From Candidatus Hydrogenedentota bacterium (lineage in GTDB: Bacteria > Hydrogenedentota > Hydrogenedentia > Hydrogenedentales > Hydrogenedentaceae): a DNA stretch of 64,000 bases. Positions 38,161-44,340 of the stretch are shown in pieces (position 1 is the stretch's first letter; the number at the start of each line of letters is the position of its first letter). Below the pieces are notes generated by a model that did not search any database, had not been told where the DNA came from, and saw nothing but the letters and a program-made list of their open reading frames with translations. The stretch is taken from positions 9,326-73,325 of the forward strand of contig JAOAHN010000026.1 in the NCBI GenBank assembly GCA_026415215.1. Direction: 5' to 3'. A program made the translations under genes and the position numbers.

Positions 38161-39054
38161 ATGAGCAGTGGAGTGCAAAAATTACTTAGTCATAAACCCA
38201 GTGCCCCTTTTTTAATCGCAATAGATTCAGATGGATGTGCCTTCGACACAATGGAGCTTAAACACAAAGAATGTTTTATACCCAACACAATAAAATATTG
38301 GGGATTACAACCGATATCCAAATATGCTCGGGAGGCTGCAGAATTTGTAAATCTCTATTCAAAGTGGAGAGGAGCAAACAGATTTCCAGCTTTAGTTAAG
38401 ACATTTGACCTCTTAATGGAATGGGAGAAAGTCAAAAAGAGAAACTTTAAAGTCCCAGAAACGCCAAACTTAAGAAAATGGATTGAAACTGAGACCAAAT
38501 TGGGAAATCCGGCTCTCGAGATTTACTGCAAAGAGCACCCTGATCACGAGGATATGCAAATCACCCTTCAATGGAGCAAAGCAGTAAATAAAAGTGTGGA
38601 AGACATTGTCCAAGGTGGTCTGCCACCATTCCCATATGTTAGAGAATGTTTACAGGCGGTGCAGGGGAAAGGTGATGTAATGGTATGCTCTCAAACACCA
38701 ACCGAAGCATTAATAAGAGAATGGGAAGAACAGGACTTAGCTAAGTATGTCTTTGCTATATGTGGACAAGAAATGGGGACTAAAGCCGAACACATCAAAT
38801 ACGCATCTGAAAATAGGTATGAAAACAACAAAATTCTAATGATAGGGGATGCCTATGGAGACCTAAAAGCAGCAAAAGCAAATAAAGCACTGTTTTATCC
38901 CATAATCCCCGGGAAAGAAGATGAGTCTTGGCAAAGACTGTTTGAAGAAGGATTAGACAGATTCTTTAATGGCAATTATGCCGGAGATTATGAAGAATCA
39001 CTTATCAAAGAACTTGAAAAATATCTTCCTGATACACCTCCCTGGAAAAGATAA
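38161..39054 (+). CDS. HAD-superfamily phosphatase
   Basis: Motif I DSDGC, motif II CSQT, Lys (GTKAEH), motif IV MIGDAYGD; start taken at ATG 38161. Confidence 0.85.
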   Translation: MSSGVQKLLSHKPSAPFLIAIDSDGCAFDTMELKHKECFIPNTIKYWGLQPISKYAREAAEFVNLYSKWRGANRFPALVKTFDLLMEWEKVKKRNFKVPETPNLRKWIETETKLGNPALEIYCKEHPDHEDMQITLQWSKAVNKSVEDIVQGGLPPFPYVRECLQAVQGKGDVMVCSQTPTEALIREWEEQDLAKYVFAICGQEMGTKAEHIKYASENRYENNKILMIGDAYGDLKAAKANKALFYPIIPGKEDESWQRLFEEGLDRFFNGNYAGDYEESLIKELEKYLPDTPPWKR

Positions 39055-39072
39055 AGTTTGATACCGCTTTCT

Positions 39073-40233
39073 ATGTTGATTCTTGCAGACGAAAATATCC
39101 CCTATGTAAAAGAAGCTTTTAGGGAATTCGGAGAAGTTATTACAATCTCTGGGAGAGAAATCACAAGAGAAAATACAAGAGATGCAGATGTTTTACTCGT
39201 CCGTTCAATAACAAAAGTAAATAAAGAGTTACTCGAAGGAAGCAAAGTAAAATTTGTAGGTACCGCTACTATTGGCTTTGACCATATTGATGTCGAATTT
39301 CTAAAAAGAAGTGAAATTAAATTTGCAAGTGCCCCAGGTTCTAATGCAAACAGTGTAGCAGAATATGTAATATCAGGCTTACTATACTTAGAAAAAAATT
39401 TCGGCTACTCCCTAAAATACAAGAAAATAGGCATCCTCGGAGTCGGTAATGTTGGCTCAAAAGTCCTTAAAAAGGTGATTTCTCTGGGTATTATCCCTAT
39501 TCTTTATGACCCGCCCCTTGCGGAAAAAATAGATAAACCTATATTCAATACATTGGAAGAAATTCACGATTGCGACATAATAACTCTCCATGTGCCACTT
39601 GAGAAAGGAGGAAGATATCCAACATACCATATGATAAACTCAGATTTCTTTTACAGTCTAAAAAGAAAAGTAGTGTTTATTAACACTTCCAGAGGTGGAG
39701 TAGTAGCAACAAAATCGTTGATAGAGGCAATAAAAAAAGGAATAGTTACTCACTCTATAGTAGATGTTTGGGAAAATGAACCCAATATCAATTTAGAATT
39801 ACTCAATTTAGTAACTCTTGCTACTCCCCACATCGCGGGATATTCTTTTGATGGCAAAGTCAATGGAACATACCAACTTTACCATGCTTTCTGTCAATAC
39901 ATTGGCAAACAACCAACTTGGGATTTCAAATCCTGTTTACCCACTCCCGATATTAAGCTTATAGATTTAGATACAAACAAACCTTACTGGCTTCATGACT
40001 CAGTCCACAAAATCTATCCAATATTCGAAGACGATAAGAGATTAAGAGAAATTTCAGCAAAATCCGAAGACCAAAGAGGAAAATTTTTTGACCAACTCCG
40101 AAAAAATTACCCTATAAGAAGGGAATTTCACAACACTACAATAAGGTTATCTTCCAAGGATGCTAACTGGGAAATTATAAATGTATTAGAAGGAATAGGG
40201 TTTAAAGTCGCGAGGACTCAGAATAATGCTTAG
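39073..40233 (+). CDS. pdxB: 4-phosphoerythronate dehydrogenase
   Basis: ILADENIPY, LVRSITKVN, GTATIGFDH, APGSNANSVAEY and HIAGYS, plus the C-terminal PdxB dimerisation motif FDQLRKNYPIRREF. Confidence 0.9.
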   Translation: MLILADENIPYVKEAFREFGEVITISGREITRENTRDADVLLVRSITKVNKELLEGSKVKFVGTATIGFDHIDVEFLKRSEIKFASAPGSNANSVAEYVISGLLYLEKNFGYSLKYKKIGILGVGNVGSKVLKKVISLGIIPILYDPPLAEKIDKPIFNTLEEIHDCDIITLHVPLEKGGRYPTYHMINSDFFYSLKRKVVFINTSRGGVVATKSLIEAIKKGIVTHSIVDVWENEPNINLELLNLVTLATPHIAGYSFDGKVNGTYQLYHAFCQYIGKQPTWDFKSCLPTPDIKLIDLDTNKPYWLHDSVHKIYPIFEDDKRLREISAKSEDQRGKFFDQLRKNYPIRREFHNTTIRLSSKDANWEIINVLEGIGFKVARTQNNA

Positions 40234-42852: not shown

Positions 42853-42885
42853 ATAAACGGAAATCAAACCAAAGGAGGTAAAAAT

Positions 42886-44340
42886 ATGGAAAACTTAATG
42901 GATATAGGACTAATCGGACTTGCAGTAATGGGTGAAAACTTAGCCCTCAACATGGAAAGTAAAGGTTTTGGTGTCGCAGTTTACAATAGGACGACCTCAA
43001 AGGTAGATGCCTTCATTTCTGGCAGAGCAAAAGGTAAAAATATAAAGGGTTGTCATTCATTAGAAGAACTCGTTAAGTCACTCAAAAAGCCTCGCAAGAT
43101 TATGCTTATGGTAAAAGCGGGTAGTCCTGTAGATGAATTCATAGAATTACTGATCCCATTATTGGAACCTGGCGACATAATAATTGATGGAGGTAATAGT
43201 AATTTCCAAGATACAATAAGAAGAACAAAGTATGTAGAAAGTAAAGGGCTACTGTATATAGGTACAGGTGTATCTGGTGGTGAGGAAGGAGCTTTAACTG
43301 GTCCTTCGATGATGCCGGGTGGGTCACCATCCGCATGGCAATATGTTAAAGGAATCTTCCAGTCTATATGTGCAAAAACACCGGAGGGTGAACCATGTTG
43401 TGATTGGATCGGCGAAAATGGAGCCGGACACTTTGTAAAAATGGTTCATAACGGCATAGAGTATGGCGATATGCAAATGATTTGTGAAACCTATCATCTA
43501 ATGAAAATGGGGTTAGGAATGACGAATGAAGAAATGCATCAAGTTTTTGCCGAATGGTATAAAGGAGAACTCAACTCATATCTGATTGAAATTACCCGAG
43601 ACATCTTAGCATATAAAGACGAAGACGGCAATTATGTAGTAGATTTAATTCTTGATACCGCAGGCCAAAAGGGCACAGGCAAATGGACTGTAATTACTGC
43701 TCTGGACGAGGGGCAACCACTAACTGCCATATCAGAAGCAGTATTTGCAAGGTGCCTATCTGCCCTGAAAGATGAACGGGTAAAAGCTAGCAAAGTAATT
43801 AAAGGTAATTTAGGTAAATACAATGGAAACAAAAACGAATTCATAAATGATTTGAGAAAAGCTCTATATGCTTCGAAAATTGTTAGTTACGCTCAAGGTT
43901 ATCAACTTATGAGGTCTGCTGCAAAAACTTACAACTGGAAGCTAAACTATGGTGGAATTGCCCTAATTTGGAGAGGAGGTTGTATAATACGCTCAGTATT
44001 CTTAGGAAAAATTAAAGAAGCATTTGACCGCAATCCTAACCTGGAAAACTTACTTCTCGACCCATTCTTCGCAAGTGTAGTTAACGAATCCCAAGAAAGT
44101 TGGAGGAGAGTGGTATCTAATGCAGTTAATTTAGGAATTCCAGTGCCTGCTATGGCATCTGCTCTTGCATACTTTGACGGTTACAGAAGTGAGTGGCTTC
44201 CTGCCAATCTGCTTCAAGCACAGAGAGATTATTTCGGAGCTCATACCTATGAGCGCATAGACAGACCTCGTGGGGAATTTTTCCATACAAATTGGACAGG
44301 GAGAGGCGGAACCACTTCCGCATCCACATACACAGTATAA
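42886..44340 (+). CDS. gnd: 6-phosphogluconate dehydrogenase, decarboxylating (long form)
   Basis: GLAVMGENLALN, GVSGGEEGA, MVHNGIEYGDMQ and QRDYFGAHTYER. Confidence 0.97.
   Translation: MENLMDIGLIGLAVMGENLALNMESKGFGVAVYNRTTSKVDAFISGRAKGKNIKGCHSLEELVKSLKKPRKIMLMVKAGSPVDEFIELLIPLLEPGDIIIDGGNSNFQDTIRRTKYVESKGLLYIGTGVSGGEEGALTGPSMMPGGSPSAWQYVKGIFQSICAKTPEGEPCCDWIGENGAGHFVKMVHNGIEYGDMQMICETYHLMKMGLGMTNEEMHQVFAEWYKGELNSYLIEITRDILAYKDEDGNYVVDLILDTAGQKGTGKWTVITALDEGQPLTAISEAVFARCLSALKDERVKASKVIKGNLGKYNGNKNEFINDLRKALYASKIVSYAQGYQLMRSAAKTYNWKLNYGGIALIWRGGCIIRSVFLGKIKEAFDRNPNLENLLLDPFFASVVNESQESWRRVVSNAVNLGIPVPAMASALAYFDGYRSEWLPANLLQAQRDYFGAHTYERIDRPRGEFFHTNWTGRGGTTSASTYTV

Follow-up and report, generated by a model that had tools for sequence, protein, structure and literature searches.

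The window analysed here, a 64,000-nucleotide stretch of a Candidatus Hydrogenedentota genome, contains a run of six plus-strand genes in the order SDR, HAD, PdxB, GntE-type LarA homolog, PPi-type PFK, and Gnd. Positions 38161–44340 begin with the HAD ATG at 38161 and end with the Gnd stop, and the SDR gene lies directly upstream. The predicted products are:

37269–38102, + strand: SDR of the D-mannonate oxidoreductase (fructuronate reductase, UxuB/UxaD-like) subfamily (NF006132, 361 bits; cut-off 281)
38161–39054, + strand: HAD, a HAD-IA (C1-capped) phosphoryl-transfer enzyme of an uncharacterised subfamily (weak HAD_2 match, DSDG motif)
39058–40233, + strand: PdxB, 4-phosphoerythronate dehydrogenase (2-Hacid_dh domains and DUF3410)
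40226–41485, + strand: LarA homolog, GntE-type, of the nickel-pincer-dependent hexonate 2-epimerase family (NF052594, 172 bits)
41566–42852, + strand: PFK, a PPi-type phosphofructokinase paralog (NF010675, 370 bits)
42886–44340, + strand: Gnd, decarboxylating NADP-dependent 6-phosphogluconate dehydrogenase (TIGR00873, 772 bits; cut-off 427)

An AAAGGA sequence lies 8 nt upstream of the HAD ATG, 3 nt separate the HAD stop from the pdxB start, and the end of pdxB overlaps the start of the LarA homolog by 8 nt. Promoter and terminator scans of the operon revealed no internal structure. Of 30 loci sampled from seven Hydrogenedentota families, 29 show the same order, so the arrangement is not a matter of chance, and the six genes are best explained as one conserved operon carrying sugar acids into the pentose-phosphate pathway. 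Gene calls and profile matches bore out the first-pass annotation in placing pdxB between HAD and the LarA homolog within a sugar-acid/pentose-phosphate run, and pdxB is the only pdx gene of the window.

The PdxB protein matches the E. coli type in domain architecture and catalytic motifs. PF00389, PF02826, and PF11890 all scored above cut-off, with DUF3410 forming the C-terminal dimerisation domain, and the solved PdxBs 3oet, 5dt9, and 2o4c aligned over the full length (E 8.5e-85 to 7e-69). In the alignment with 3oet (E 8.5e-85, residues 6–363), the RG, DVWE-EP, and HIAGY motifs, containing the catalytic Arg, Glu, and His, were all matched. The protein differs from the E. coli type in falling 9 bits under the NCBIfam equivalog cut-off (NF001309, 424.6 bits against 434) and in its gene context, where pdxB sits within a gnd operon and overlaps a LarA homolog, unlike in Proteobacteria. 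With a runner-up of 130 bits, it is the sole strong NF001309 match in the genome, indicating a single copy. Its usual partners pdxJ, pdxA, serC, and pdxH were each matched once, on contigs C132, C93, C116, and C117, respectively, all distinct from the contig that carries the window (C107), and a genome search for pdxS gave no match; between the pdxA/pdxJ and pdxS/T routes, this genome therefore has the former. A full DXP-dependent pathway together with a sole PdxB means that vitamin B6 explains pdxB, and its sequence identifies PdxB as the organism's ordinary vitamin-B6 enzyme by predicted activity. The suggestion that PdxB guards Gnd rather than making vitamin B6 is accordingly not supported. 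For annotation, pdxB in this cluster keeps its B6 name and should not be read as a sugar-acid enzyme.

We then considered how firmly pdxB belongs to the cluster. Its position there is phylum-wide in Hydrogenedentota: HAD and pdxB are adjacent in at least 86 of the 113 genomes with both genes (hand-collated), and PdxB adjoins the LarA homolog in 29 of 30 sampled loci. One relative (G039) has a compact SDR-HAD-LarA-Gnd operon, with gaps of 3–40 nt, and its PdxB on a different contig; four others (G041, G045, G046, and G048) keep PdxB and PdxJ and are missing both HAD and Gnd. Outside the phylum, in Verrucomicrobiota and Planctomycetota, PdxB was unlinked to HAD in 39 of 41 genomes and near it in two, and 19 of 60 HAD-bearing genomes showed no PdxB. 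The two linked cases are a Verrucomicrobiota genome with PFK-HAD-PdxB-Gnd and a Planctomycetota genome in which PdxB overlaps LarA beside SDR-HAD. Their PdxBs branch with the unlinked PdxBs of their own phyla, so the two links arose independently, against a chance expectation of ~0.1 in 41 genomes (p ~0.005). PdxB is also the least conserved protein of the cluster, at 47–51% identity compared with 65–78% for HAD. Most likely, PdxB sits in the operon as a passenger and not as an obligatory part. The originally envisaged module, in which PdxB and/or HAD protect Gnd from 4-phosphoerythronate, survives in part: the HAD–gnd link is strong and crosses phyla, and the anticipated recurrence of pdxB linkage was seen in the two independent cases, but PdxB is separable and persists without HAD or Gnd.

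The gene linked to gnd is HAD. A neighbour census of 60 HAD loci in Verrucomicrobiota and Planctomycetota returned Gnd 20 times, SDR and PFK 9 times each, the LarA ortholog 7 times, and PdxB once, with no further family above 3. Gnd was thus the commonest neighbour, in several different gene orders and against a chance expectation of ~0.07, though the genomes compared are related and not independent, so these linkage counts overstate the support. PFK-HAD-Gnd triads occur in both phyla, and two genomes without a LarA homolog also have HAD-Gnd operons. Within one Hydrogenedentota family (f7), 4 genomes have HAD as well as Gnd and 10 have neither. Where the Hydrogenedentota cluster is split, SDR stays beside HAD in 9 of 10 loci, and HAD lies with SDR, a GntR regulator, and an enolase-superfamily protein, away from PdxB-LarA-PFK-Gnd; in other phyla, SDR orthologs flank HAD or the LarA homolog. 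The HAD family numbers ~385 cluster representatives at E < 1e-30, and sampling detected it in 119 of 135 genomes of Hydrogenedentota, 83 of 301 of Verrucomicrobiota, and 52 of 301 of Planctomycetota. Beside gnd in three phyla and lost together with it, HAD belongs to the core of the Gnd module.

HAD itself retains all four catalytic motifs (D22-S-D24-G, S177, K208, and G229-D230-x3-D234), conserved in 43 sequences. An AF2 model (pLDDT 96.8) gave a Rossmann-like core and a helical cap, with helices 31–167 inserted between motif I (strand 17–21) and motif II (strand 171–176); K34, R74, and W138 in the cap are invariant and R70 is conserved. The model and alignment describe an intact HAD-IA enzyme whose C1 cap is enlarged and bears conserved Lys and Arg residues. 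Its HAD_2 score, 23.8 bits, is at the cut-off (36 of 43 family members match HAD_2), no PDB sequence matched at E up to 1, and structural matches were to generic HAD-IA proteins only (Z 18.4–14, rmsd ~3 Å over ~200 of 297 residues). HAD shares superfamily and catalytic motifs with the mammalian and yeast phosphatases PGP and Pho13, but was rejected as their relative since its large C1 cap lies between motifs I and II, in place of a C2-type cap after motif II, and Hydrolase_6 matched none of 43 aligned family members. It was likewise rejected as a CpgA/RsgA relative, its HAD core and helical cap being unlike the circularly permuted P-loop GTPase fold. Homology to the known 4-phosphoerythronate phosphatases therefore stops at the superfamily level.

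Next, we examined the sugar-acid route encoded around HAD. The best solved relative of the LarA homolog is 4NAR, Thermotoga maritima GntE2 (E 5e-59, compared with 2e-9 for LarA), and its orthologs in other phyla sit with UxaC, UxaE, SDR, gluconokinase, and Gnd. GntE activity and its role in feeding mannonate into the pentose-phosphate pathway have been published (PMC7583248). The T. maritima uronate route comprises UxaE, an SDR reductase, GntE2 (= LarAH20), gluconate kinase, and Gnd, and has three parts in common with this operon: an SDR of the fructuronate reductase type, a GntE-type LarA homolog, and Gnd. It differs in that no gluconokinase was found here or in the PVC relatives, where the cluster instead contains HAD and often a PPi-type PFK paralog; in that UxaC and UxaE, both beside the cluster in relatives and other phyla, were not found in this genome; and in the insertion of pdxB, limited to Hydrogenedentota and two other genomes. 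The operon PFK, one of three in the genome, carries GGNDS and PKTIDND motifs, the other two being encoded on contigs C57 (GGDGT) and C93 (GGNDS). No transaldolase match was found in this genome.

The gluconokinase gap extended to other HAD-bearing genomes. In this genome (93.6% complete), the SKI-type gluconokinase model TIGR01313 had no match at E up to 0.01, and the four FGGY kinases are GlpK, XylB, rhamnulokinase, and ribulokinase, none of them a gluconokinase. SKI-type gluconokinase was found in 0 of 19 HAD-bearing genomes versus 5 of 8 HAD-less genomes with a LarA ortholog (Fisher p 7e-4), and no FGGY gluconokinase scored above cut-off in any of them. In HAD-less clusters, a kinase comes directly after the LarA ortholog, SKI-type in four (L017, L031, L032, and L033) and FGGY-type in one (L034). 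In G039, UxaC and a sugar ABC transporter lie beside SDR-HAD-LarA-Gnd with no kinase there. Two HAD-less genomes with LarA (G136 and G137) were likewise without a gluconokinase match. A GntE route to 6-phosphogluconate with no recognisable gluconokinase is thus exposed as a pathway hole.

Taken with its neighbourhood, HAD, which lies next to pdxB here and accompanies gnd in three phyla, may protect Gnd or may replace the missing gluconate kinase; either answer would assign a function to a conserved HAD family. Of these, we tentatively favour protection, a proposal drawn from gene context. HAD would act as a phosphatase for an aldonic-acid phosphate that otherwise blocks Gnd, keeping open the single exit from 6-phosphogluconate to ribulose-5-phosphate while sugar-acid carbon is funnelled through Gnd. 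The first candidate substrate would be 4-phosphoerythronate and the second 6-phosphomannonate or a similar by-product of the route through mannonate and gluconate. The literature premise of the first-pass annotation is correct, as 4-phosphoerythronate inhibits 6-phosphogluconate dehydrogenase and is removed by PGP/Pho13 and CpgA (PMC6449344). The rationale for this substrate is that inhibition, the killing of a Bacillus subtilis cpgA mutant by gluconate feeding (PMC6449344), the independent arrival of pdxB in the HAD neighbourhood at least twice outside the phylum, and the lack of a transaldolase match in this genome. A 4-phosphoerythronate phosphatase role for HAD is therefore plausible, and within the protection reading this substrate is only slightly ahead of a C6 compound. 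Counting against protection are the lack of kinship between HAD and PGP/Pho13 or CpgA, the position of HAD in split Hydrogenedentota clusters with SDR and apart from PdxB-LarA-PFK-Gnd, and the 19 of 60 HAD-bearing genomes outside the phylum in which no PdxB was seen.

Known proofreading systems offer partial parallels. The proposed job is like that of PGP in mammals, Pho13 in yeast, and CpgA in B. subtilis, which remove a phospho-aldonate inhibitor of 6-phosphogluconate dehydrogenase (PMC6449344). A further parallel is provided by CbbY (xylulose-1,5-bisphosphate phosphatase) and CbbZ/Gph (phosphoglycolate phosphatase), which are C1-capped HAD-IA enzymes like HAD. In cbb operons they are encoded beside RuBisCO, whose inhibitor or side product they remove, the same logic as HAD beside gnd. 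HAD aligned structurally with CbbY at Z 16.1 and with Gph-type structures at Z 17.1–16.2, but identity is 11–17%, ~90 additional HAD residues, located in the cap and C-terminus, are unmatched, and the partner enzyme, and presumably the substrate, is different. We know of no description of PGP, Pho13, or CpgA being encoded beside gnd, and, to our knowledge, the moonlighting GTPase CpgA is the only known bacterial counterpart of the eukaryotic 4-phosphoerythronate-proofreading phosphatase. If HAD is such a phosphatase, dedicated to this task and encoded beside gnd in three phyla, it would be the first candidate to emerge from genome context.

What the phosphatase reading leaves unexplained is the lack of a recognisable gluconokinase in HAD-bearing genomes and the presence of a kinase at the matching position of HAD-less LarA-Gnd clusters. 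This makes kinase replacement a serious rival, albeit one we consider somewhat unlikely: instead of working as a hydrolase in the cell, HAD would phosphorylate gluconate to 6-phosphogluconate for Gnd, filling the gluconokinase slot of the Thermotoga-type pathway. The gluconate would come from the SDR and the GntE-type epimerase, or be imported, and pyrophosphate, a sugar bisphosphate, or a similar donor would supply the phosphoryl group by way of an aspartyl-phosphate. Its fuller form, a novel type of small-molecule phosphotransferase replacing gluconokinase in Hydrogenedentota, Planctomycetota, and Verrucomicrobiota with its Asp charged from PPi or from fructose-1,6-bisphosphate of the neighbouring PFK, is rather unlikely; if true, sugar acids would enter the pentose-phosphate pathway through the PFK-HAD-Gnd triad, driven by pyrophosphate. 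The complementary kinase distribution, the kinase-free G039 locus with its adjoining UxaC and transporter, the frequent PPi-type PFK neighbour, the unusually large cap, and the strong conservation of HAD all favour this reading. So do HAD-fold precedents among the structure matches (BT2127 pyrophosphatase, Z 16.8; beta-phosphoglucomutase, Z 15.2; the kinase PtkA, Z 14.8). The transferring enzymes beta-phosphoglucomutase, PtkA, and ThrH have fold and aspartyl-phosphate chemistry in common with HAD, and ThrH, a phosphoserine:homoserine phosphotransferase, stands in for a missing small-molecule kinase. Nevertheless, HAD-IA enzymes are overwhelmingly hydrolases, and we know of no HAD sugar-acid kinase. 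No specific sequence relationship was found between HAD and these transferring enzymes, and we infer a transferase role from the gluconokinase gap alone. Phylogeny itself confounds the complementary distribution, since the genomes with HAD belong to three related phyla and a clear within-phylum contrast is available from a single genome (G135). G136 and G137 point to alternative solutions or to gaps in the assemblies, the missing step could instead be supplied by the PFK paralog or by a kinase that escaped recognition, and the pdxB link is left unexplained.

That link is what a joint 4-phosphoerythronate-control module would account for, with PdxB selected to drain this metabolite besides making vitamin B6. 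4-Phosphoerythronate is the one metabolite linking PdxB, HAD, and Gnd (PMC6449344), and the adjacencies within Hydrogenedentota and the two independent recurrences, one of them exactly PFK-HAD-PdxB-Gnd, fit such a module. We nonetheless judge it improbable, because B6 flux is tiny relative to the detoxification need, the cluster does without PdxB in G039, PdxB survives without Gnd or HAD and is mostly unlinked in other phyla, its sequence is the least conserved, and an ancient linkage followed by decay is indistinguishable from repeated gain. Alternatively, HAD might dephosphorylate 6-phosphogluconate itself, relieving a build-up that inhibits phosphoglucose isomerase or returning gluconate to the epimerase and reductase. 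HAD is associated alike with Gnd, SDR, and the LarA homolog, its nearest folds include the sugar-phosphate phosphatase YniC (Z 17.1) and predicted phosphoglycolate phosphatases, and in the B. subtilis model it is the accumulation of 6-phosphogluconate that is toxic (PMC6449344). An enzyme of this kind co-expressed with Gnd would, however, be a futile drain on the Gnd substrate, and this reading, which leaves both the pdxB link and the missing kinase unexplained, is very unlikely. Least probable is that HAD and pdxB are housekeeping genes merely sharing a well-expressed gnd operon. Unrelated housekeeping genes are common in operons, and the promoter and terminator scans are compatible with this, but it is unlikely for HAD, which neighbours Gnd in a third of the loci in two other phyla, in varied gene orders, and is lost jointly with it. 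For pdxB taken by itself, the absence of a functional link is essentially the best explanation, that of a passenger.

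The HAD protein (a C1-capped HAD-IA protein), PdxB and 6-phosphogluconate dehydrogenase (6PGDH; Gnd) are encoded within a conserved operon, comprising the following genes:

37269-38102, plus strand, SDR of the D-mannonate oxidoreductase subfamily
38161-39054, plus strand, HAD protein, start ATG preceded by AAAGGA
39058-40233, plus strand, PdxB
40226-41485, plus strand, LarA homolog
41566-42852, plus strand, PFK, one of three paralogs
42886-44340, plus strand, Gnd

Only 3 nt separate the HAD stop from the pdxB start, and pdxB overlaps the LarA gene by 8 nt. The ATG chosen for HAD in the first-pass annotation was upheld, with AAAGGA upstream. 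Scanning 36800-46400 for promoters and terminators yielded counts equal to those of shuffled sequence, and hence no operon boundaries. As listed, a ZIP metal transporter ORF (44270-45157) overlaps the end of Gnd, though the true start of this ORF probably lies further down, and a GhrB-like 2-hydroxyacid dehydrogenase (45173-46165) lies downstream of the cluster in an arrangement kept at genus level. Locus L009 (CAZZMK010000034.1), titled "uncultured Nitrospirales bacterium," encodes cluster proteins 72-94% identical to those of the window; the same identities were obtained with same-genus genome G056, and the Nitrospirales title probably reflects misbinning or misnaming. The source names of the closest HAD homologs and the closest loci both place the organism in Hydrogenedentota. 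Neighborhoods were reconstructed from genome-search loci and tblastn, using for the most part metagenome-assembled genomes.

The first-pass annotation had proposed that PdxB and/or HAD guards Gnd against 4-phosphoerythronate (4PE), instead of or beside a role in vitamin B6 synthesis, and had noted that the window holds no other pdx gene. As the one genomic match each for PdxJ, PdxA, SerC, and PdxH lies on a different contig from the window, the latter observation was correct. The source genome (93.6% complete) thus contains pdxJ, pdxA, serC, and pdxH, and we found no pdxS in it; of the two routes the annotation had named, pdxA/pdxJ was present and the pdxS alternative was not. The window PdxB carries a DUF3410 domain and matches solved PdxBs along its entire length (E 8.5e-85 to 7e-69), with catalytic motifs in place. 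It scores 9 bits below the NCBIfam equivalog cut-off, which we read as divergence rather than changed function. No other gene of the genome is a strong PdxB match, the next best being a SerA-like and then a GhrB-like gene. Judged by sequence, this is an ordinary B6 enzyme and the genome's sole copy. PdxJ occurred without a PdxB match at E 1e-40 in genomes G037, G038, G040, G042, G044, G001, and G002, an instance of the "PdxB hole" reported for many clades (PMC9997740).

PdxB and HAD were each found in 119 of 135 Hydrogenedentota genomes. Both genes occur together in 113 genomes, and in at least 86 of these pdxB lies within about 4 kb of HAD, a lower bound hand-collated from place tables; of 30 loci sampled across seven families, 29 have the LarA ortholog after PdxB. 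The cluster does not require PdxB, which is dispensable for the module, because where the cluster is split within the phylum it forms two blocks, SDR-HAD and PdxB-LarA-PFK-Gnd; because genome G039 has an SDR-HAD-LarA-Gnd operon (gaps of 3-40 nt) with PdxB on another contig; and because four genomes of family f7 (G041, G045, G046, and G048) retain PdxB and PdxJ without HAD or Gnd. The relocated PdxB of G039 adjoins a GhrB-like gene (L181). Among LarA-anchored loci, PdxB was present in 3 of 27, all three Hydrogenedentota-like records.

Outside the phylum, 41 HAD-bearing Verrucomicrobiota and Planctomycetota genomes have PdxB, and in 39 it is unlinked, on another contig or >100 kb away. Of the two exceptions, G445 has the order PFK-HAD-insertion-PdxB-Gnd, and in the other, G589, PdxB overlaps the LarA ortholog by 4 nt and is convergent with SDR-HAD-SDR. 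In a quick maximum-likelihood tree, each of these PdxBs groups with unlinked PdxBs from its own phylum (SH-aLRT 100 and 83), and we therefore reject import of the linkage through block transfer of PdxB-LarA from Hydrogenedentota. Two linkages were observed against about 0.1 expected, which exceeds chance, and we keep a functional tie between PdxB and this gene neighborhood as a minority reading. The insertion in G445 is a 173-aa ORF of the PD-(D/E)XK_3 family (L140:2131-2649) and not a pathway gene; members of this small family are present at three HAD loci (L140, L121, and L128).

The gene tied to gnd is instead HAD, as demonstrated by linkage and co-loss. Sampling of 301 genomes from each phylum turned up the HAD family in 83 Verrucomicrobiota and 52 Planctomycetota genomes. 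Taking the 30 best-scoring loci per phylum with 1.5-kb flanks on each side, HAD neighbored Gnd in 20 of the 60, a UxuB-like SDR in 9, a PPi-type PFK in 9, the LarA ortholog in 7, and PdxB in 1. Unbiased clustering, performed with known genes masked because overlapping spurious frames otherwise dominated GC-rich loci, placed no other ORF family beside HAD in more than 3 of these 60 loci. Gene orders varied (Gnd-HAD, HAD-Gnd, PFK-HAD-Gnd, and SDR-HAD-LarA), which argues for repeated selection. Within family f7, HAD and Gnd are both kept in four genomes and both missing in ten. Two Planctomycetota genomes have HAD-Gnd operons without any LarA homolog, and distant LarA homologs (28-35% identity) adjoin HAD-Gnd in G442:C46, G367:C31, and G565:C25; with this second subgroup, the LarA-HAD-Gnd association spans more than one LarA orthogroup. 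At split-cluster loci L161-L170 (family f3 and others), the genes after SDR-HAD encode a GntR-family regulator, a possible sugar-acid dehydratase of the enolase superfamily (MR_MLE_C), and an unassigned protein of ~260 aa.

Across 43 aligned, diverse members of the family, all four HAD motifs are kept (D22-S-D24-G, S177, K208, and G229-D230-x3-D234), as are the invariant K34, R74, and W138, the near-invariant R70, and a conserved C-terminus (P247/E253/W257/W295). The AlphaFold model (pLDDT 96.8) inserts seven cap helices (residues 31-167) after motif I and before motif II, and predicts a C1-type cap about twice the usual size. The conserved Lys and Arg residues of the cap would suit a substrate bearing a further anionic group, for instance a carboxylate or second phosphate. 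Foldseek and VIA-align returned generic HAD-IA enzymes only (Z 18.4-14 over about 200 of 297 residues), including AlnB, YniC, Gph, the BT2127 pyrophosphatase, CbbY, beta-phosphoglucomutase, and PtkA, and neither found a close relative accounting for the extra 90 residues. The single sequence had no match in the PDB, the family profile had just two weak HAD-IA matches, and the ESM Atlas gave only generic "HAD family hydrolase" clusters. Collectively, the kept motifs, C1 model, generic fold matches, and lack of a PDB sequence match show HAD to be an intact phosphoryl-transfer enzyme. Its uncharacterized subfamily comprises about 385 cluster representatives at E < 1e-30. Three long proteins (P0134, P0152, and P0199) fuse HAD to a CobA-type adenosyltransferase, a Cof-type HAD phosphatase, or a GH42 beta-galactosidase; these heterogeneous, uninformative fusions may be real or gene-calling artifacts.

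The LarA homolog is of the GntE type: among solved proteins it is closest to 4NAR (T. maritima GntE2; E 5e-59, vs 2e-9 for lactate racemase). E. coli PdxB makes a D-2-hydroxyacid by-product; a role for the LarA homolog in recycling it was set aside, as the homolog is GntE-type and occurs in PdxB-less uronate clusters of other phyla. GntE converts D-mannonate to D-gluconate, which is thought to supply the pentose-phosphate pathway (PMC7583248). The published Thermotoga GntE route recurs here as a variant in which HAD, often accompanied by a PFK paralog, stands in place of the kinase. An Anaerolineales locus reads SDR-UxaC-UxaE-SDR-LarA-x-gluconokinase-Gnd and a Pirellulales locus PFK-SDR-x-x-HAD-LarA-x-Gnd-UxaC. 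In HAD-less LarA-Gnd clusters (L017 and L031-L034), a kinase, SKI-type in four and FGGY-type in one, comes right after the LarA ortholog.

HAD-bearing genomes have a gluconokinase gap. TIGR01313 gluconokinase was found in 0 of 19 (the source genome, G034, G039, G068, G092, and 14 PVC genomes) versus 5 of 8 HAD-less LarA genomes, a contrast that Fisher's p of 7e-4 overstates because related genomes are not independent; within the phylum, only G135 gives a clear contrast. Nor did any of the 19 have an FGGY gluconokinase above cut-off, the source genome's four FGGY kinases being GlpK, XylB, rhamnulokinase, and ribulokinase. UxaC, UxaE, and transaldolase were likewise not found in the source genome. 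Its three PFKs are one ATP-type and two PPi-type:

window 41566-42852, PFK paralog, GGNDS motif (PPi-type)
G000:C93:54068-54916 (source genome), PFK paralog, GGNDS motif (PPi-type)
G000:C57:46837-47757 (source genome), PFK paralog, GGDGT motif (ATP-type)

As no transaldolase was found, the PPi-type paralog may act in a sedoheptulose-bisphosphate type of pentose-phosphate pathway or phosphorylate a non-F6P substrate.

HAD-IA enzymes are hydrolases in nearly all cases, and for this reason we rank first, though tentatively and at somewhat below even odds, a phosphatase that would clear a phospho-aldonate otherwise blocking Gnd. 4PE is a proven 6PGDH poison, worst under gluconate feeding (PMC6449344), and is the sole metabolite that accounts for the rare, recurrent arrival of pdxB beside HAD; the SDR and LarA links make 6-phosphomannonate almost as strong a candidate. 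Close behind, if doubtful, is the possibility that HAD replaces gluconokinase by phosphoryl transfer, which alone would explain both the missing kinase and the swap of kinase for HAD in otherwise equivalent clusters.

That PdxB is itself an active detoxifier, as the first-pass annotation's full model held, draws on the same two linkages outside the phylum, but with PdxB dispensable for the module we consider it improbable. A 6-phosphogluconate overflow valve is less probable still. Least likely is that HAD merely hitch-hikes, which the variety of its gene orders speaks against. For the favored Gnd-protecting phosphatase, the nearest analogues in logic to HAD-gnd are CbbY and CbbZ, which are HAD-IA enzymes with genes next to that of the enzyme they protect, and likewise 4PE proofreading by PGP/Pho13 and CpgA, although HAD belongs to neither family, the former being C2-capped and the latter a GTPase.
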